64,000 bases of DNA from Candidatus Buchananbacteria bacterium CG10_big_fil_rev_8_21_14_0_10_33_19 (GTDB lineage: Bacteria > Patescibacteriota > Patescibacteriia > 2-01-FULL-39-33). The notes beneath the pieces were generated by a model. The model was not told where the DNA came from and did not search any database. It saw only the letters and a program-made list of their open reading frames with translations. The stretch is taken from assembly GCA_002773855.1 (NCBI GenBank), contig PEZY01000012.1, positions 367,847 through 431,846 of the forward strand. The letters are read 5' to 3'. Positions 40,929-50,224 of the stretch are shown here, in pieces; within the stretch, counting starts at the first letter, position 1, and each line of letters begins with the position of its first letter. The position numbers and the translations under genes were made by a program.

Positions 40929-42128
40929 TTATTTTTTTATAACCACTACTCCCTCTCTTAAAACTATGATATTACCAGCTTCTATTTTTACTAAAGTCGA
41001 TGGCGAAGATTCTAATTTACCACGATCAATATAAAAATCTACCATATTGCTAAAATATTTTTTAGCTTGACGAATAGTTAAGGCTGGATCTAAGCCTTCT
41101 GGATTAGCACTCGGTGCTACTAATGGTCCAGTTTTCCTCAGTAAAAATCTCAACCACTTATTATCTGGCAATCGAAAAGCCAAGGAATTAGTACCGCGAT
41201 GTAAATAATCTAATTTTTTATGACAACCCAAGATAACACTCACCTGGCCTGGCCAGTATTTTTGCAATATTTTTTTAGTTTTATTATCTATTTTTACGCC
41301 AAATTTATTTAAATCAGAAATTTGGCTAATTAAAATTATAAGTGGCTTATCAGGACTTCTTTTTCTAACTTTATAAATTCTTTCCACTGTATTTTTATTC
41401 AAAGCTTTACCAACTAAGCCATAAATAGTATCGGTTGGTACTACGCCAATACCGCCTTTTTTTAATATATCAATCTGTTGTTTAAAATACTTTTTAGACA
41501 ATTCATCAACACTTAATGTTTTTTTTAAATTAAAATCTCCTACTTTAGTTCTTTTTAACCCAGACATATAAGCACCCGTGTTTAAACTGGTACCAATATC
41601 TCGGGCCAAAGATCTAATATAAACTCCAGAACCACAAACCACCTTTATTTGAAGATCGGGAAATTTATACTTTAAAATTTTTATACTTTTAATTTCAACC
41701 GGTCTAGCTTGAAGTTCTATTGATTCACCATTTCTAGCTAGCTTATAAGATCTTCTCCCATGGACTTTGATGGCACTATACACAGGTGGAATTTGATTTA
41801 TCACACCAATAAATTTACTTATTGAGCTACTAACCTCATTACGCGTTATGTGTTTTATGTTTTGCATTATGTGTTTTATACCCTCTTCATCATCGGTCGT
41901 ACTAGAAATACCTAATTTAATATCAGCTACATATTCTTTTTCACCTCGAACAATATTGTCTAGTTGTCTAGTAGCTTCTCGTCCCAAGCCTACCACTAAA
42001 ATACCCTCAGCGAGCGGATCTAAAGTACCAGCATGACCAACCCTTTGTTCGCCGGTCGCTTTTTTAATTTGAGCAATTAAACTATAAGAGCTAGGCCCTT
42101 TTGGTTTATAAACTGCAAAGATATTCAT
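40929..42128 (-). CDS. Fusion protein: tRNA pseudouridine-55 synthase TruB (N-terminal) + L-threonylcarbamoyladenylate synthase TsaC/YrdC domain (C-terminal)
   Basis: N-terminus: GHAGTLDPLAEGILVVGLG catalytic Asp motif of TruB. C-terminus: VVPTDTIYGLVG, KPLIILIS and PSANPEG motifs of YrdC/Sua5. Confidence 0.65.
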   Translation of the reverse strand: MNIFAVYKPKGPSSYSLIAQIKKATGEQRVGHAGTLDPLAEGILVVGLGREATRQLDNIVRGEKEYVADIKLGISSTTDDEEGIKHIMQNIKHITRNEVSSSISKFIGVINQIPPVYSAIKVHGRRSYKLARNGESIELQARPVEIKSIKILKYKFPDLQIKVVCGSGVYIRSLARDIGTSLNTGAYMSGLKRTKVGDFNLKKTLSVDELSKKYFKQQIDILKKGGIGVVPTDTIYGLVGKALNKNTVERIYKVRKRSPDKPLIILISQISDLNKFGVKIDNKTKKILQKYWPGQVSVILGCHKKLDYLHRGTNSLAFRLPDNKWLRFLLRKTGPLVAPSANPEGLDPALTIRQAKKYFSNMVDFYIDRGKLESSPSTLVKIEAGNIIVLREGVVVIKK

Positions 42129-42785: not shown

Positions 42786-43016
42786 ATGGACCACTTTGGT
42801 GAATGTGATTGTGATTGTCATAATCCAAACATTATAGGTCAAATTAATCATGTTGGGCCATGTTGTTATGAATGCCCATATTGTCAAATGCGAATCACTC
42901 CGGGGTTTATTGATTTTCATAAGGCGGAGTGTCAAAAGAAAATTGAAGAGTATCTTAAGACGCAAGACACTTTTAATCCTATTGACTCCAACAAAACAGA
43001 AAACAAGAAAGGGTAA
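42786..43016 (+). CDS. Small Cys/His-rich zinc-finger protein, family member 3 (76 aa)
   Basis: GECDCDCHNPN…CCYECPYCQMRITPGFIDFHKAECQKK; aaGGGTGG RBS. Confidence 0.55.
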   Translation: MDHFGECDCDCHNPNIIGQINHVGPCCYECPYCQMRITPGFIDFHKAECQKKIEEYLKTQDTFNPIDSNKTENKKG

Positions 43017-43020
43017 TACC

Positions 43021-43347
43021 ATGGTCGTGAATGATTTTGAAATTTGTCATTGTAGATGTCATAATAATCCAAACATAATGCACTGCATGCCTTGTTGTCT
43101 ACCTTGTCATTATTGTGGAGCTAATATTAAACATTTTTATTTTGAAAAACATGTAACTGATTGTCAAGCGGCCATCAAAAATCAATGTACTAGTGACAGC
43201 GAATTATGTGATTGCGCCTTTCATCAATTACCAAGCCGTTGTTCGCCAGCTTGCTGTAAAGAATGCCCTAAATGTAAGTTGCACATTAAAGAAAAATTCT
43301 TTGCTGAGCATCTAGAAAAATGCTCGGGTAAAAAACCCAAAAAATAA
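43021..43347 (+). CDS. Small Cys/His-rich zinc-finger protein, family member 4 (two tandem finger modules, 108 aa)
   Basis: The ATG at 43021 follows the same aacaagaaagggt RBS context as member 3; ICHCRCHNNPN…CCLPCHYCGANIKHFYFEKHVTDC plus a second CDCAFH…CCKECPKCKLHIKEKFFAEHLEKC module; the ORF-track frame 42850-43347 is an upstream extension overlapping gene 3. Confidence 0.5.
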   Translation: MVVNDFEICHCRCHNNPNIMHCMPCCLPCHYCGANIKHFYFEKHVTDCQAAIKNQCTSDSELCDCAFHQLPSRCSPACCKECPKCKLHIKEKFFAEHLEKCSGKKPKK

Positions 43348-43348
43348 A

Positions 43349-43376
43349 AGTCTCAGACAATGAGACTTTTTTTATT
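43349..43376 (+). terminator. Terminator after zinc-finger array
   Basis: agtctca-gacaa-tgagact + T7. Confidence 0.7.
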
Positions 43377-44547
43377 TACCAACACTATAAAATCTATTGC
43401 GTCTTTTGCGTCGCCCCGCCGAATTACCAAATCGATGAGCTTCATCTCTAGCTTTAGTAATTAATTCCCGTTGGGACTTAGCCAACTCTTTAACGGCCAT
43501 ACTAGTTTTAATTGGAAAAACCATTCTATCTCCGGCCAATTTAGACAAGCCAATAATTGGAATACTAATACCAATTCTTTTTAAAACTTGATTGACATAA
43601 TCAATCTGTGGCTTACCGCCATCAATTAAAATTAAATTAGGAAATGGCCACTCAATGTGTTTAAATCTTCTCGTCAACATTTCTTCTAGACTTCTCAAAT
43701 CATCACTAGCTGGCGCCGTTTTAATATTAAACAAGCGATACTGATCTTTAGCTAATTGACCATTAATAACCACTGACATCGCGCCAACCGTTTCTTGACC
43801 AGTAAAGTGTGAAATATCATAACCCTCTATTCGATTTTTACCATGATTATTACTAAGTTCATCTTTGGTAATTAGTGTCACATCTTGAATATTTTTTAAA
43901 GCCGATAACACTTCGGGATTTTCTTTTTTTAATTTTGCCAGCAACCTTTTCTTTTCACCTTTAAACAATAAAACAATATTTAAAATATTTTTCTTATAAT
44001 CTTTTTTATTAATTTCCCCAATACAAGTACCGGGACATAATCCCACTTGATAATCAAAACAGGGTTTACCAGAATTTGGCGTGCAAGTACTATAAGGGAA
44101 AATCCGTCTGATAATTCGTAAAGTATTTTTTAACAACGTGGCATTTTGATAAGGTCCAAAAATATAAGCATCGGTAGTTGGAAACTTATTTAATTCTCGT
44201 TCCCGAATAATAATGGGGTAAGCATAATCTTTTTTAGAAATTACAATAAAAATAAACGACCGATGATCCTTATCCTTCACATTATACTTAGGCCAATGTT
44301 TTTTAATCAAATTAGCTTCCAAAATAATCGCTTCTAACACTGTGTCGGTTTGCTGGTGTTTAATATTTTGCGCTAAAGACACCATTTCACTAATTCGCGA
44401 ATCAATATCGAGTCGAAAATATTGCAAAACTCGACGCCGCAGACTAGTGGCGCGACCAATATAAAGAATCTCGCCCTTTTGGCCGATGAACATATACACC
44501 CCCGGTGTTAATGGTAAATTTTTCGCTAAATCTTTAATGTTTTTCAT
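43372..44547 (-). CDS. uvrC: UvrC-like excinuclease, short form (GIY-YIG + RNase H-like endonuclease domain; no UVR or (HhH)2 domains)
   Basis: N-terminal GIY-YIG (GVYMFIGQKGEILYIGRATSLRRR), Cys-rich box CFDYQVGLCPGTC, C-terminal IEGYDISHF…LILIDGGKPQI endonuclease domain; only 391 aa. Confidence 0.65.
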   Translation of the reverse strand: MKNIKDLAKNLPLTPGVYMFIGQKGEILYIGRATSLRRRVLQYFRLDIDSRISEMVSLAQNIKHQQTDTVLEAIILEANLIKKHWPKYNVKDKDHRSFIFIVISKKDYAYPIIIRERELNKFPTTDAYIFGPYQNATLLKNTLRIIRRIFPYSTCTPNSGKPCFDYQVGLCPGTCIGEINKKDYKKNILNIVLLFKGEKKRLLAKLKKENPEVLSALKNIQDVTLITKDELSNNHGKNRIEGYDISHFTGQETVGAMSVVINGQLAKDQYRLFNIKTAPASDDLRSLEEMLTRRFKHIEWPFPNLILIDGGKPQIDYVNQVLKRIGISIPIIGLSKLAGDRMVFPIKTSMAVKELAKSQRELITKARDEAHRFGNSAGRRKRRNRFYSVGK

Positions 44548-44560
44548 AAATTAACTGCTA

Positions 44561-44589
44561 TTGACAAAATACCATAAATATGATATAAT
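44561..44589 (+). promoter_or_regulatory. Perfect consensus promoter TTGACA-17-TATAAT
   Basis: TTGACA at 44561-44566, 17-nt spacer, TATAAT at 44584-44589; drives small gene 44638-44832. Confidence 0.65.
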
Positions 44590-44637
44590 TACAACAGTGT
44601 TGTACATTACTTTTGGCAAAAATTGGAGGAACTTGTT

Positions 44638-44832
44638 ATGCTCTGGATTATCCTGCGTGATTTCCACGCATCACTTGCAGACATGAAGGCCGCTGTCGAA
44701 CTTTTCAAGGAAGTTCATAGCGCTGAATCTCGGGGCCTTGGTCCAGCGATGATTGGCGGTCTCGTTTTCGAGACCAAGGGTGATATTCCATCTGAAGACC
44801 AGCTGGTCTTGGGCATCATCCCCTTCAGCTAG
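44638..44832 (+). CDS. Small hypothetical protein (64 aa) with atypical GC-rich codon usage
   Basis: GGAGG 8 nt before ATG; strong hairpin terminator at 44858-44898; codons mostly G/C-ending (ctg cgt gat ttc cac gca…), unlike the surrounding genome. Confidence 0.5.
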   Translation: MLWIILRDFHASLADMKAAVELFKEVHSAESRGLGPAMIGGLVFETKGDIPSEDQLVLGIIPFS

Positions 44833-44857
44833 CCTTTGACTAGTGGACATCAATTTT

Positions 44858-44898
44858 GGACTCTTAACTGCTAATCACAGTTAACGAGTCCTTTTTTA
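44858..44898 (+). terminator. Terminator after small gene
   Basis: ggactcttaactg…cagttaacgagtcc long hairpin + T6. Confidence 0.7.
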
Positions 44899-44944
44899 TT
44901 TTACCATAAATTGTTATACTAGCCTTATCGTGGAGGAAAAAATC

Positions 44945-45223
44945 ATGTTCATTCACAAAGAAATATATAACAAAATTTTCCACCAACCATTATTTCAACT
45001 AGATTTAAGTGGCGGTAAAGGTATACTTCTGATTCACAATTTACTTTGGGTTGTCGGTTTTACTATGATTATTACCGCTGTCGGCTATGCCTTGGGTCTT
45101 TATGATGAAACTGAAAATAAAAAAGATTTCAAAATTCCCAAAGATGTTATTTATATTTTCTTTATCGGACTAGCAATATTTTTAGCTAGTTTTTATGTTC
45201 CTATCCCTATTGTGCGTCAATAG
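44945..45223 (+). CDS. Small membrane protein (2 TM), hypothetical
   Basis: GGAGG RBS before MFIHKEIY…; two hydrophobic helices; the ORF-track start at 44930 is less likely. Confidence 0.4.
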   Translation: MFIHKEIYNKIFHQPLFQLDLSGGKGILLIHNLLWVVGFTMIITAVGYALGLYDETENKKDFKIPKDVIYIFFIGLAIFLASFYVPIPIVRQ

Positions 45224-45257
45224 GGATTTTTTATCATATAAATATCTTCATAAACCT

Positions 45258-45481
45258 GCGACAATTAAAAAATTTAAGGAGAAGATGAAACGAGAGCCCT
45301 GGCGATTGGGCGTCGTCTACATCCAAAATTTTCAACTGTTTGAACCATTTTCGACATATCTAGAATAATGAAAATGGTGAGTTTTGAAAATTAGCCAGGC
45401 GAAGTTTTAGATTCGACTATAAATTTTTTACTGTCGCGATTTTTGCGGTACTTTTTCTAAAAAAGTACCAAGGTGATTTAG
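45258..45481. repeat. Copy A of a ~225-bp hairpin-rich direct repeat (downstream of uvrA)
   Basis: About 85% identical to 48125-48356; conserved blocks gcgacaatt…aaggagaagatgaaacgagagccct.gcgattgggcgt.gtctac…gttttgaaaattagc…cgaagttttag.ttcgactataaattttttactgtcgcgatttttgcggtactttttctaaaaaagtacca. Confidence 0.75.
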
Positions 45482-45520
45482 AATAAAATTAGAAATTGAA
45501 AATTGAAAATTAATCCAAGT

Positions 45521-48115
45521 CTATTTCAAATACTCCTTAATATACTTGCCGGTCACACTCTTGGGGTCTTTCATCACCTGCTCTGGTGTCCCCTTAGCTA
45601 CAATATAGCCACCACGGTCGCCACCCTCGGGACCTAAATCAATTACATAATCAGCGGCATGAATAATATGTAAATTATGTTCAATGACGGCAATGCTATT
45701 TTGTCGATCGATTAATTTGTTTAATACTCCTAACAACAGTTCAATATCATGATAATGTAAACCAACAGTTGGCTCGTCCAGTAAATACAAAGTTTTTCGA
45801 CCCAAAGTATGCGTTAACTCTCTAGCCAATTTTATCCGCTGAGCTTCACCACCAGACAAAGTGGTCGCACTTTGACCTAATTGTAAATAACACAAGCCAA
45901 CTTCCTGTAAGACCTTTAATTTATCAGTGATCTGATAATGAGTATCAAAATAATCTATGGCCTCATCAATGGTTAAAGCTAGTACTTCGGAAATATTTTT
46001 ACCCTTATATTTCACCTGCAAAGTCTCCCGATTAAAACGCTTGCCATGACAGACTTCACACTCCACTGTTACCGCTGGCAAAAAATGCATTTCAATTAAA
46101 TTAACACCAGCCCCATCACAAGCTTCACACCGACCGCCCGGACGATTAAAAGAAAACCGCGACAAAGTATAACTTCGCTCTCGTGATTCTGGCAACATAG
46201 CAAAGAATTCTCTAATTGGTGTAAAAATACCGGTGTAAGTGGCTGGATTAGACCGAGGCGTTCGACCAATTGGCGATTGATCCACAATCACCACCCGATT
46301 AATATATTCAGTGCCAATAATTTTTGACACATCTTCTAAGTCCTCTTTTTTAACATTGGTCGCCAGTCGTGGATTGGCTTTTATTTTTTGAACATTTTTA
46401 TATAAGACATCATATAACAAAGATGATTTACCGCTACCAGACACCCCAGTAATACAGACCATTTTTCTAAGTGGAATATCCACTTGAACATTTTTTAAAT
46501 TATTAGCTCGCGCCCCAATAATTTTAATGGCTTCGCTAGTTGTCGTTCTTCTATTTGAGGCAGTTTCAATAAATCTCTCGCCTCGTAAATATTCTAAAGT
46601 CAAAGATTTTTGGGGATTAGTCTTTTTTAATAATTCTTTAGTCTCACCAATCGCTACTACTTCACCACCATGACGTCCAGCCAGTGGCCCTAAATCCACT
46701 AGATAATCCGAAGCCATAATTGTCCGCTCATCATGCTCGACAATAATCACGCTATTACCCTGATCTTTTAAAGCTTTTAGAGTTTTAATTAATCTTTCGG
46801 TATCTCTTTCGTGTAAGCCAATAGTTGGCTCGTCAAGTACATAAAGGGTTTTAGACAAATGCGAACCGATTTGTGAACCCAGTCTAATTCGTTGCGCCTC
46901 GCCACCAGATAATGTTTCCGCTTCGCGACTAAGCGACAAATAATTTAAACCTACCTGCAACAAGAAATCCAAACGATCACCAATCTCAATCACGACATTT
47001 TCGGCAATTTCTTTTTGACGGCTGGTCATTTTATTATGATAATCCACAAAAAAAGCATAAGCCTGTTCTATCGACAACGCACTGACTTCGGCTATATTTT
47101 TTTTATTAATTTTAACTGCCAATGGTTCGGCTCGCAATCTTTGGCCATGACACGACAAACAAGGTTCAATATTTTTCTCATATTTATTTTTATACTCACC
47201 TATTTCTTCGCCTTGATCATCAAATTTCTTTTTGGCTCCCCATTCTACTACTCGGCCTAAACCATTACACTTCTCACAAGCTCCGTGTGGACTATTAAAA
47301 GAAAATAATCTTGGCTCCACTTCAGGAAAGGCAAAGCCATCATTAGGGCAAGTCCAATTAGAGGACAACAAAAATTCTGGACTATCTTGTTTCTTTTCTC
47401 TAAACAAAGCAATAGCCAGTCCAGTGGCATAATTAATTGAATTTTCTACCGCTTCCGACAAACGACCTTCATCACTAATCATCACGCGATCAATCACAAT
47501 ATCAATACTGTGCTTGCTATGTCTAGCTAGTTTTACTTTTTCATGTAGCGAATAAAATTGACCATCAATTCTAGCTTCGGAAAAACCCAAAGCTAAATAA
47601 TCATAAAGCAACTGATAATATTCCCCTTTTCTATCGACGACAACAGGTGAAAGAATAGTAACATATTCTTCGTCCAACTCTTTGGCCCGGGATTTGATGA
47701 TATCAATCATCTCATCGAGTGCTAATTTATCAATTTTATGATTACATTTTGGACAATAAACTTCTCCTAACCGAGCATATAAAACGCGCAAATAATCATA
47801 AATTTCAGTCAGGGTGCCGACGGTAGACCGTGGATTATGCGACAAAGCCTTTTGGTCAATAGAAATAGATGGCGCTAGGCCAATGATTTCATCAACATCA
47901 GCCGGTTTCATTTGGCCCAAAAATTGCCGGGCATAAGGTGACAAAGATTCGATATAGCGTCGTTGGCCTTCAGCAAAAATGGTATCAAAAGCGAGTGATG
48001 ATTTACCACTGCCGGAGACACCAGTAAAAGCCACCAACTTGTTATGGGGTATTTCTAAACTAACATTTTTTAAATTGTGTACCCGCGCTCCACGGATGAT
48101 TATACTATCTTTCAT
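45521..48115 (-). CDS. uvrA: Excinuclease ABC subunit A
   Basis: Two ABC ATPase modules ([10 protein letters not shown] twice; LSGGEAQRI signature twice); zinc-finger Cys pairs. Confidence 0.9.
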
Positions 48116-48124
48116 ATTATATAA

Positions 48125-48356
48125 ATAAATTAATGCGACAATTTTAAAATTTAAGGAGAAGATGAAACGAGAGCCCTAGCGATTGGGCGTTGTCTACGCC
48201 CAAAATTTTCAATGTTTGAGAAACTTGTTCACTTATTTAAATAAAAAAGTTTCGAGTTTTGAAAATTAGCGGGACGAAGTTTTAGCTTCGACTATAAATT
48301 TTTTACTGTCGCGATTTTTGCGGTACTTTTTCTAAAAAAGTACCAATGTGATTTAG
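48125..48356. repeat. Copy B of the ~225-bp direct repeat (between uvrB and uvrA)
   Basis: See copy A; contains hairpins gggcgttgtctacgccc, cgaagc…cttcg and ggtactttttctaaaaaagtacc. Confidence 0.75.
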
Positions 48357-48382
48357 TGATATAAAAAACTATCCCAAAAAAC

Positions 48383-50224
48383 TTATTTCTCCACCACATC
48401 CAACATACTCTCAATATCTTTTTTAATCGTCTGAGGCGTAATCTTATATTTTTTATTGTAAGCCAATTGTAATTTCCTTCTTCTTTCTACTTCTTCAATC
48501 GCCCGCTTCATTGAACCGGTTTTTTTATCAGCATATAAAATCACTTTACCATCCACATTTCTCGCCGCTCGACCCATGGTCTGAATAAGCGCTTCCTCGC
48601 TTCGCAAGAAACCTTCTCGGTCAGCATCCATAATCGCCACCAGTGTTACCTCTGGTAAATCTAAGCCCTCGCGCAGTAGATTAACCCCCACCAAAATATC
48701 AAACTGACCCTCTCTAAACTCTTGCAAAATCTCGGTGCGTCTAAAAGTTTTGACATCACTATGCATATAGGCCGCTTTAAAGCCATTTTTCTGTAAATAA
48801 GCATCCAAATCTTCAGCCATTTTCTTGGTCAAGGTGTTAACAATCGCTCGTTCGCCTTTTTTAATTACTAATTTTAATTCTTCAATCAAATCGTCTACTT
48901 GGCTAATATTTTTCTTTTTATCAAACACTTGTCTAATTTCTATCGGTGGATCCACTAAGCCAGTTGGTCTAATCACTTGCTCGGCAATCGTCTTTGAATG
49001 TTTTATCTCCCAATCCCCTGGTGTCGCTGAAGTAAAAACCGTTTGACCAATACGTTCTAAAAATTCATCAAATTTTAATGGTCGATTGTCGAGGGCACTT
49101 GGTAATCGCCAGCCGTACTTAATTAAATTTTCTTTTCTGGCTTTATCGCCAGCATACATACCTCTGACCTGTGGTAAACCAATATGCGACTCATCCATCA
49201 CTAATAAAAAGTCTGGTTGGCCATTTTTATCCTTCGGGAAATAAGATAACAACGAATCTGGCGCCTCGCCAGATAATTTACCGGTCAAATGCCGAGAATA
49301 ATTTTCAATCCCATGACAATACCCCAAACTCCTTAACATTTCCATATCGTATTTAGTTCGACGTTCTAATCTTTCGGCTTCCAAATATAAATTATTTTTG
49401 TTATAAAATTTTAAACGATCTTTTAACTCCACTTTAATATCAGTAATAGCTCTCTCTATTTCTGGTTTAGTGGAAATAAAATGCTTGGGTGGAAAAATAA
49501 TGATATCTTTTAAACCCTCTATAATATGCCGAGTGGTTTTATCAACAATACCAATATCACTAATTTTTTGATCAGCTAATTCTAACCGATAGATTACATC
49601 CTCACCGGCTGGCCGAATTTCAAAGACATCGCCTCTTACCCGAAATGATCCCCTTACCAATTCACCAGTAGTTCTAGTAAATTGAATTTTAACTAACTGA
49701 GAAATTAAATCATGGCGAACAATATTTTGATCAATTTCTAAATGAAGTGATGACTGAGTATAGCTAACTGGTAAACCCAAATTATAAATACAGGACACGC
49801 TGGCTACAATGATGACATCACGCCTAGTCGCTAGAGCACTAGTCGCTTGATGACGCAATCTGTCTATTTCTTCGTTGATCATCGCTTCCTTTTCAATATA
49901 AGTATCACTAGTTGGCATATAAGCCTCTGGCTGATAATAATCATAATAAGATACAAAAAAATTAACACTGTTATCCGGAAAGAAATTTTTATACTCACGA
50001 TAAAGCTGAGCGGCCAAAGATTTATTTGGTGCCATTACCAAAACTGGCCGATTAAAATCAGTTATCAAATTAGCGGCCGTAAAGGTTTTACCAGAGCCCG
50101 TCACTCCTAGTAAGGTTTGAAAATCATTACCTATCTTAAGACTCTTAATTAGAGACCTAATCGCTTGGGGCTGATCACCAGTTGGCTGAAATTTTGATTT
50201 TAACTTAAATATTTTATCTGTCAT
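48383..50224 (-). CDS. uvrB: Excinuclease ABC subunit B, short form (no C-terminal UVR domain)
   Basis: Helicase motifs (GVTGSGKTF, DESH, QTMGRAARN), beta-hairpin region; 613 aa, ends before the UvrC-interacting coiled-coil (no …LEFEEAA..RD… motif). Confidence 0.85.
   Translation of the reverse strand: MTDKIFKLKSKFQPTGDQPQAIRSLIKSLKIGNDFQTLLGVTGSGKTFTAANLITDFNRPVLVMAPNKSLAAQLYREYKNFFPDNSVNFFVSYYDYYQPEAYMPTSDTYIEKEAMINEEIDRLRHQATSALATRRDVIIVASVSCIYNLGLPVSYTQSSLHLEIDQNIVRHDLISQLVKIQFTRTTGELVRGSFRVRGDVFEIRPAGEDVIYRLELADQKISDIGIVDKTTRHIIEGLKDIIIFPPKHFISTKPEIERAITDIKVELKDRLKFYNKNNLYLEAERLERRTKYDMEMLRSLGYCHGIENYSRHLTGKLSGEAPDSLLSYFPKDKNGQPDFLLVMDESHIGLPQVRGMYAGDKARKENLIKYGWRLPSALDNRPLKFDEFLERIGQTVFTSATPGDWEIKHSKTIAEQVIRPTGLVDPPIEIRQVFDKKKNISQVDDLIEELKLVIKKGERAIVNTLTKKMAEDLDAYLQKNGFKAAYMHSDVKTFRRTEILQEFREGQFDILVGVNLLREGLDLPEVTLVAIMDADREGFLRSEEALIQTMGRAARNVDGKVILYADKKTGSMKRAIEEVERRRKLQLAYNKKYKITPQTIKKDIESMLDVVEK

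Follow-up and report, generated by a model that had tools for sequence, protein, structure and literature searches.

We analysed a window of 64,000 nucleotides (64 kb) from the Patescibacteria genome of Candidatus Buchananbacteria bacterium CG10_big_fil_rev_8_21_14_0_10_33_19, in which the nucleotide excision repair (NER) genes uvrB, uvrA and uvrC lie together on the minus strand. The three open reading frames (ORFs) lie exactly where the original prediction had placed them, and the encoded proteins each score above the cut-off of their NCBIfam equivalog model. UvrB and UvrC, however, both lack the UVR domain of their canonical counterparts, as the original prediction had proposed: Pfam at E<=1 and a locally built UVR profile were negative for both window proteins, whereas the E. 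coli controls were positive. The genes and the features on which the following description relies are:

48383-50224, minus strand: uvrB, 613 amino acids (aa)
48413-48538, minus strand: PF12344, residues 563-604, the last conserved element of UvrB
45521-48115, minus strand: uvrA, 864 aa, with two ABC ATPase modules and the UvrB-binding domain (residues 139-237)
47213-47245, minus strand: site of the lost insertion domain of UvrA, residues 291-301, where about 100 residues are replaced by a linker of about 10 residues
43372-44547, minus strand: uvrC, 391 aa, with a GIY-YIG domain, a beta-sheet motif, a Cys-rich bundle of four helices and RNase H2
44281-44502, minus strand: GIY-YIG 3'-incision nuclease domain of UvrC, PF01541, residues 16-89
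44023-44085, minus strand: Cys-rich motif of iron-sulphur (Fe-S) type in UvrC, C155-x7-C163-x3-Q167-x3-C171-x3-C175
43870-43959, minus strand: vestigial UvrB-binding hairpin of UvrC, residues 197-226, GEKKRLLAKLKKENPEVLSALKNIQDVTLI
43429-43848, minus strand: RNase H-like 5'-incision nuclease domain of UvrC, PF08459 (130.9 bits), residues 234-373

Domains of the window proteins were called with Pfam at a threshold of E<=1. The same searches detected the UVR motif of E. coli UvrB (634-667) and, in E. coli UvrC, the UVR motif (205-237), PF22920 (251-368) and the helix-hairpin-helix (HhH) region (557-608). The local UVR profile was iterated and recovers the UVR motifs of control loci at E-values of 1e-12 to 1e-20.

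The window UvrB is complete up to the point at which it stops. It scores 895 bits on TIGR00631 (cut-off 750; profile positions 2-596 of 658) and 910 bits on NF003673 (cut-off 743), and it contains the Pfam families ResIII, UvrB_inter, Helicase_C and PF12344 (563-604). The superfamily 2 (SF2) helicase core is present, judging from ResIII, Helicase_C and these equivalog scores, the beta-hairpin SYYDYYQPEAY matches the aligned B. subtilis sequence exactly, and domain 2, which interacts with UvrA, is found as PF17757 (residues 160-249). The stop codon at 48383-48385 follows PF12344 by about 9 residues, and the linker and the UVR domain 4 of canonical UvrB are lacking. Alignment with B. subtilis UvrB extends over residues 5-596 of 661, so that the window protein ends about 60 residues early and, as had been claimed, before its C-terminal UVR domain; the profile matches likewise end at about 596-597 of 653-658 positions. 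Neither PF02151 nor the local UVR profile found a match in this UvrB.

UvrC passes its equivalog model TIGR00194 only marginally, with 294.8 bits against a cut-off of 285.45, a margin of about 9 bits. Its only Pfam matches are GIY-YIG (16-89) and UvrC_RNaseH_dom (234-373), and at E<=1 neither UVR (PF02151) nor any HhH family was detected. The original prediction, that the 391-aa protein keeps both nuclease domains and has lost the UVR and (HhH)2 domains, thus held for every loss it named. It was incomplete in two respects, as the central inactive RNase H1 domain (PF22920, about 120 residues) is also gone and the short helices flanking the hairpin remain. PF22920 was absent at E<=1 with a positive E. 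coli control, and E. coli UvrC residues from about 250 to 380 have no counterpart in the alignment.

Alignment of 117 UvrC relatives revealed that Y29, R39, E77 and N89 of the GIY-YIG domain are invariant and Y18 nearly so. D244, D283, D309 and H371, equivalent to E. coli D399, D438, D466 and H538, are invariant as well, and the window UvrC thereby has the DDH triad of the 5' nuclease (D244, D309 and H371, together with D283). C155, C163, Q167, C171 and C175 are invariant or nearly invariant, and the window protein fits the published Fe-S consensus CX6-14CX3H/QX3CX3C (PMC10085695). Purifying selection on UvrC is evident from the invariance or near-invariance of the GIY-YIG, DDH and Cys residues in these 117 sequences. 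The AlphaFold2 (AF2) model of UvrC has a predicted local distance difference test (pLDDT) value of 85.9, and Foldseek matched its GIY-YIG fold to 1yd6 and 1ycz (TM 0.85-0.92 on the target) and its RNase H fold to 2nrt and 8b0q.

In the clade of the window, the UvrC hairpin was lost through a clean 15-residue in-frame deletion relative to UVR-containing relatives. Gone are the last part of helix alpha7, the turn and, in helix alpha8, the F-E-x-A-A core, while 'GxKKxLLxKLKKENP' and 'ALKxIQDV' remain and form two short helices (199-209 and 211-218) in the AF2 model; the UVR profile has no match in residues 197-226. A first alignment with E. coli UvrC had suggested that alpha8 was retained. The UVR-containing compact relatives ruled this out, because 'IQDV' lies past the hairpin and the F-E-x-A-A core is deleted. 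At its C-terminus the protein ends about 18 residues beyond the RNase H domain with a basic tail where (HhH)2 would be, while the same searches found (HhH)2 in E. coli and in the related locus L075. The NCBI records of the identical UvrC and of other compact UvrCs, among them P0001 and P0005, carry merely the name 'GIY-YIG nuclease family protein'.

The 864-aa UvrA scores 1199 bits on NF001503 (cut-off 1147) and retains the UvrB-binding domain as PF17760 (residues 139-237). It is short, as had been noted without its cause, because the insertion or DNA-binding domain PF17755 is missing: Pfam did not detect it, and residues 291 and 301 align to chain residues 305 and 407 of 2r6f, the crystal construct of B. 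stearothermophilus UvrA. PF17755 was detected in the UvrA of L075 and remained undetected in those of the window, L006 and L033. The two losses that the original prediction had missed, RNase H1 of UvrC and the insertion domain of UvrA, bear on the mechanism discussed below.

Judged by orthology, the window trio is a member of UvrABC, yet it lacks five canonical domain features. Like the systems of E. coli, Bacillus and Thermotoga, it has three orthologous genes above the equivalog cut-offs, a UvrA with its ABC modules and UvrB-binding domain, a UvrB with helicase core, beta-hairpin and domain 2, and a UvrC with GIY-YIG and RNase H (DDH) nucleases and the Cys-rich motif. In contrast to them, it is devoid of UvrB domain 4, the UVR hairpin, RNase H1 and (HhH)2 of UvrC, and the UvrA insertion domain.

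Errors of assembly, frameshifts or faulty gene calling in a metagenome-assembled genome (MAG) could in principle produce such short genes, since the organism is uncultured, MAGs can hold frameshifts and the relatives L039 and L070 do contain gaps of N. This explanation is vanishingly improbable, and the data already refute it. At least 23 contigs from independent samples carry an identical UvrC, labelled 'Candidatus Falkowbacteria bacterium' by NCBI, and the trio of 613, 864 and 391 aa was called in three independent assemblies, with identical gene lengths across different samples. Hundreds of homologues share the architecture. The 120 nearest UvrC relatives measure 337-421 aa, with the 337-aa copy located on a contig of 1.3 kb; for the 120 nearest UvrB relatives the range is 608-684 aa. 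Every named one among them belongs to Patescibacteria and has the same architecture. The precomputed Pfam lists show PF02151 in none of either set, an absence that is informative because these lists do give the family for UvrBs of more distant Patescibacteria. In UvrC, the deletion is clean and preserves the reading frame. A scan of the entire 64-kb window with the UVR profile in all six frames gave no match (best E = 5.8), so there is neither a frameshifted remnant, downstream of uvrB or elsewhere in the window, nor a stand-alone UVR ORF. Nor did a search for split or frameshifted remnants of UVR or HhH turn up any in the sequence downstream of uvrB, in that downstream of uvrC or in the 973-bp gap between uvrA and uvrC.

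As a check, the original prediction had asked beforehand if the truncation recurs as a pair in related genomes, and the outcome was strongly positive. Scanning a single genome for each GTDB species yielded 80 loci with compact UvrCs spread across Patescibacteria, and extra loci were found by looking up UVR-less UvrBs from other lineages. The scores on the UVR profile were bimodal, with 49-71 bits or at most 8 bits for UvrC and, at the same loci, 41-47 bits or no match for UvrB; Pfam confirmed the split for a subset. Among the 38 genomes in which both uvrB and uvrC were readable, UVR is absent from both proteins in 30, present in both in 8 (L032, L033, L039, L041, L050, L051, L066 and L071) and mixed in none. 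The UVR-less pairs comprise 25 from the clade of the window, the window included, four from a second clade (L067, L084, L085 and L086) and L087 from a third. This strict co-variation of the UVR modules of UvrB and UvrC is a new result; in the literature on UvrC in Patescibacteria or the candidate phyla radiation (CPR) we found no description of either the architecture or the paired loss.

Two assignments made during scoring were revised. L039 had appeared to be mixed, with a UVR domain in UvrC and none in UvrB, owing to a scaffold gap of 100 N past which the UVR sequence of UvrB is present. P0457, P0497 and P0451 had been scored as UVR-less and were reassigned when a divergent UVR motif was recognised, also by Pfam.

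Trees were built by neighbour-joining with the UVR columns left out and carry no support values. In the UvrC tree, the UVR-less forms make up one main clade plus L067. The tree of the UvrB core required a Fitch minimum of 4 changes, which fell to 3 because one small 'UVR-less' clade carries a divergent UVR. Paired loss thus appears to have occurred in two to three separate lineages, and for trees of this kind it is safe to speak of at least two paired losses that were independent. RNase H1 is absent from all 80 compact UvrCs (80/80), including those that keep UVR, which indicates that RNase H1 was lost before UVR. Among the compact-UvrC loci, only some Saccharimonadales still possess (HhH)2 and the UvrA insertion domain, and UVR-containing lineages such as L033 already have a UvrA devoid of the insertion domain. 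Loss of the UVR pair is thus the latest step of a stepwise minimisation.

The C-termini of UVR-less UvrBs are plain truncations after '...ITPxTIxKxIExxLD', followed in some lineages by a short basic tail. In UvrBs from independent UVR-less lineages (L005, L007-L010, L012, L067, L084 and L085), Lys/Arg-rich low-complexity tails such as ...KKSIKKQAEKK and ...RKRPRKHRR occupy the former UVR site; the window UvrB has no such tail. Two fusions were encountered among the relatives: P0372 is a 999-aa protein in which a compact UVR-containing UvrC (1-385) precedes a transglutaminase-like domain, and P0433 is a 796-aa UvrB with alpha/beta-hydrolase domains. Many MAG records with typical Patescibacteria uvr clusters (L005, L007, L010, L012 and others) bear the title 'uncultured Gammaproteobacteria bacterium' or 'uncultured Candidatus Saccharibacteria'; such titles seem unreliable and played no part in our taxonomy.

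The closest counterparts of the window UvrC are the compact UVR-containing UvrCs of other Patescibacteria (L032, L033, L041, L071 and, from Saccharimonadales, L075). They share its backbone without RNase H1, and most of them also lack (HhH)2 and are partnered by a UvrA without the insertion domain. They differ in having a full UVR hairpin (49-71 bits) and a UvrB with C-terminal UVR (41-47 bits), and some Saccharimonadales have kept (HhH)2 and the UvrA insertion domain too.

The class II protein Cho (E. coli ydjQ) is likewise composed of a GIY-YIG and Cys-rich nuclease without UVR. Unlike the window UvrC, which keeps RNase H2, Cho has no 5' nuclease domain and bears a C-terminal domain of its own, and in E. 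coli it works beside a UvrB that keeps domain 4. The window UvrC scores 67.5 bits on the Cho model NF007833, far from the cut-off of 367; by its sequence it is no Cho, resembling Cho only in its proposed independence of UVR. On the side of UvrB, the domain-4-less forms (UvrB*) obtained by proteolysis or engineering from E. coli and Bacillus also end just past the PF12344 motif, and crystallised constructs of 593 aa (PDB 6o8e-type) align to residues 6-604 of the window UvrB. Those forms are laboratory truncations, whereas the one in the window arose in nature, is conserved and has its counterpart in the UvrC deletion. Moolenaar's work of 1995 and Wang's of 2006 are said to have found that domain-4-less UvrB loses autoinhibition and UvrC-dependent 3' incision. 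The same two losses are reported for UvrB without domain 4 in PMC7835731.

E. coli depends on the UVR contact for 3' incision and does not require it for 5' incision (PMC7835731; PMC10085695); in the same species, loss of (HhH)2 impairs 5' incision (PMC7835731; PMC10085695), and UvrB domain 4 serves also as an autoinhibitory gate (PMC7835731). In the model of Seck et al. (2023), the RNase H1 platform occludes the GIY-YIG site, and binding of UvrB to helices alpha7-alpha8 is proposed to release it (PMC10085695); the same authors describe additional UvrB contacts outside the UVR motif (PMC10085695). Class II Cho has no UvrB-binding domain and still incises (PMC10085695; PMC1564403); it reportedly makes the 3'-side cut in UvrB-DNA complexes (PMC1564403; PMC10085695), which provides a precedent for UVR-independent recruitment.

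On balance, we lean towards the view that the window encodes a functional, evolutionarily minimised UvrABC system of Patescibacteria, in which the UVR-UVR handshake has been removed from both partners and UvrC is recruited independently of UVR, as Cho is. As usual, UvrA2 would load UvrB at the lesion, using the UvrB-binding domain that it has kept, and UvrC would be recruited in a Cho-like manner by contacts with the UvrB core and with DNA. We propose that the handshake became dispensable because the RNase H1 platform, which it is proposed to unlock, was by then already missing from UvrC. In UvrCs without RNase H1, the handshake would have no unlocking role and would be merely a redundant tether. 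Loss of either UVR partner would leave the other without function, and it would be lost too. The window proteins probably still carry out damage-dependent dual incision, as their conserved catalytic residues and gene clustering suggest. A broader proposal, plausible although we lean slightly against it, is that the UVR-UVR coiled-coil is a regulatory latch tied to RNase H1 and no essential recruiter. Patescibacteria without RNase H1 would then drop it repeatedly and always in both partners, and the 391-aa UvrC would dock onto UvrB-DNA through an undescribed core interface that may be hidden in canonical systems too.

Several points weigh against the UVR-independent recruitment that we favour. 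The mode of contact between UvrC and UvrB in the window system is something we infer, and the 'unlocking' of canonical UvrC by UvrB is a model derived from an AlphaFold prediction (PMC10085695). Loss of the UVR contact abolishes 3' incision in E. coli, while the activity of the window proteins is assumed from their sequence conservation, and the proposed mechanism does not directly explain the loss of (HhH)2, which E. coli needs for 5' incision. The data cover the 64-kb window, and a second UvrC or Cho, or a UVR-containing adaptor, may be encoded elsewhere in the genome. The neighbour-joining trees lack support values. Finally, comparison of the UvrB cores from independent UVR-less lineages revealed no convergent compensatory substitution. 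The sole candidate common to these lineages, Y75, is also tyrosine in B. subtilis UvrB and presumably in E. coli; it was rejected because the difference reflects a change within the UVR-containing comparison group.

The original prediction had implied either a different recruitment mechanism or an adaptor, and the second branch has some appeal. The requirement of the UVR contact for 3' incision makes some replacement plausible, and small unannotated ORFs (a membrane-like one of 97 aa, one of 64 aa and Cys-rich ones) adjoin uvrC. An adaptor or trans-acting protein with a UVR-like or other bridging domain could then take the place of the direct handshake. We compared the window ORFs from 33 to 60.5 kb, as well as the small ORFs, with the 80 related loci. 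Across 35 UVR-less loci only uvrA, uvrB and uvrC are conserved near the cluster, and no other neighbouring ORF is. The small ORFs in the 973-bp uvrA-uvrC gap and beside uvrC are common to the nearest relative L004 only, and in several relatives uvrA directly abuts uvrC. Besides, no frame of the window contains a UVR motif, and each of the three lineages would have had to recruit an adaptor of its own. An adaptor may lie elsewhere in the genome; the absence of a syntenic candidate nevertheless favours the branch of a different mechanism, and we regard replacement of the handshake by an adaptor as distinctly improbable. A system that has been partly disabled or repurposed is an unlikely reading as well. 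Without the handshake and (HhH)2, UvrC would no longer perform coupled dual incision; it might make a single cut or act as a UvrB-independent structure-specific nuclease, with UvrAB in another role. The E. coli phenotypes fit such a scenario, in that 3' incision is blocked by loss of the UVR contact and 5' incision is impaired by loss of (HhH)2, as do the altered regulation expected of a UvrB that has lost its autoinhibitory gate and the strong reductive pressure on CPR genomes. It is opposed by the conservation of both nuclease sites, the Fe-S motif, the UvrB beta-hairpin and the UvrA-UvrB interaction domains in more than 100 diverged sequences. The intact uvrB-uvrA-uvrC order is also found at 27 of the 35 UVR-less loci, as opposed to 8 of the 45 UVR-containing ones. 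Conserved active sites and retained clustering argue for continued joint function.

These lineages are a natural experiment on an open question of bacterial NER, the way in which UvrC reaches the UvrB-DNA complex and becomes active there. From an evolutionary standpoint, the all-or-none pattern is evidence that neither UVR domain is essential for anything besides binding the other, and it shows that repair genes can persist without them. The 391-aa UvrC and the 613-aa UvrB are the smallest natural dual-nuclease NER pair in this analysis, which makes them attractive for structural work on the incision complex. In repair surveys of CPR genomes uvrC may be under-called, because of its NCBI name and a score barely above the UvrC cut-off.

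The surroundings of the cluster are ordinary chromosomal DNA of about 34% GC, with genes for pyruvate phosphate dikinase, LepA, DnaX, RNase P RNA and superoxide dismutase. Two small plus-strand ORFs lie in the uvrA-uvrC gap. One, at 44641-44832 (64 aa), is GC-richer, has a strong GGAGG ribosome-binding site and belongs to no family; the other, at 44930-45223 (97 aa), has two hydrophobic segments and a counterpart in L004 only. These opposite-strand ORFs break the uvr cluster, so that uvrC is probably transcribed separately here. Beyond uvrC, tandem small plus-strand ORFs at 42786-43016 and 43018-43347 encode repeated Cys/His-rich modules (CxCxCH...CCxxCxxC...H...C) that have no secure Pfam family and are conserved in the closest relative L004 only; precomputed calls give a faint zf-Di19 hint for their neighbour. 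At 40929-42128 on the minus strand, a single 399-aa ORF joins a TruB tRNA pseudouridine synthase (22-216) to a Sua5/YciO/YrdC threonylcarbamoyl-AMP synthase domain (221-393), a fusion that was called in independent assemblies too.

A repeat of about 225 nt occurs in two copies, 92-95% identical and the only ones in the window, at 45257-45481 and 48134-48356, about 45 nt past the stop codons of uvrA and of uvrB. It matched no Rfam family, was absent from the closest relative L004 and had no exact match in a metagenome scan. Read on the gene strand, it starts with a terminator-like hairpin (GGTACTTTTTT-AGA-AAAAAGTACC), followed by a unit of about 190 nt closed by inverted ends, and its predicted RNA fold reaches -64.1 kcal/mol (z = -6.9 against shuffles). 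The repeat could be an element resembling a miniature inverted-repeat transposable element (MITE) or a structured 3' element.

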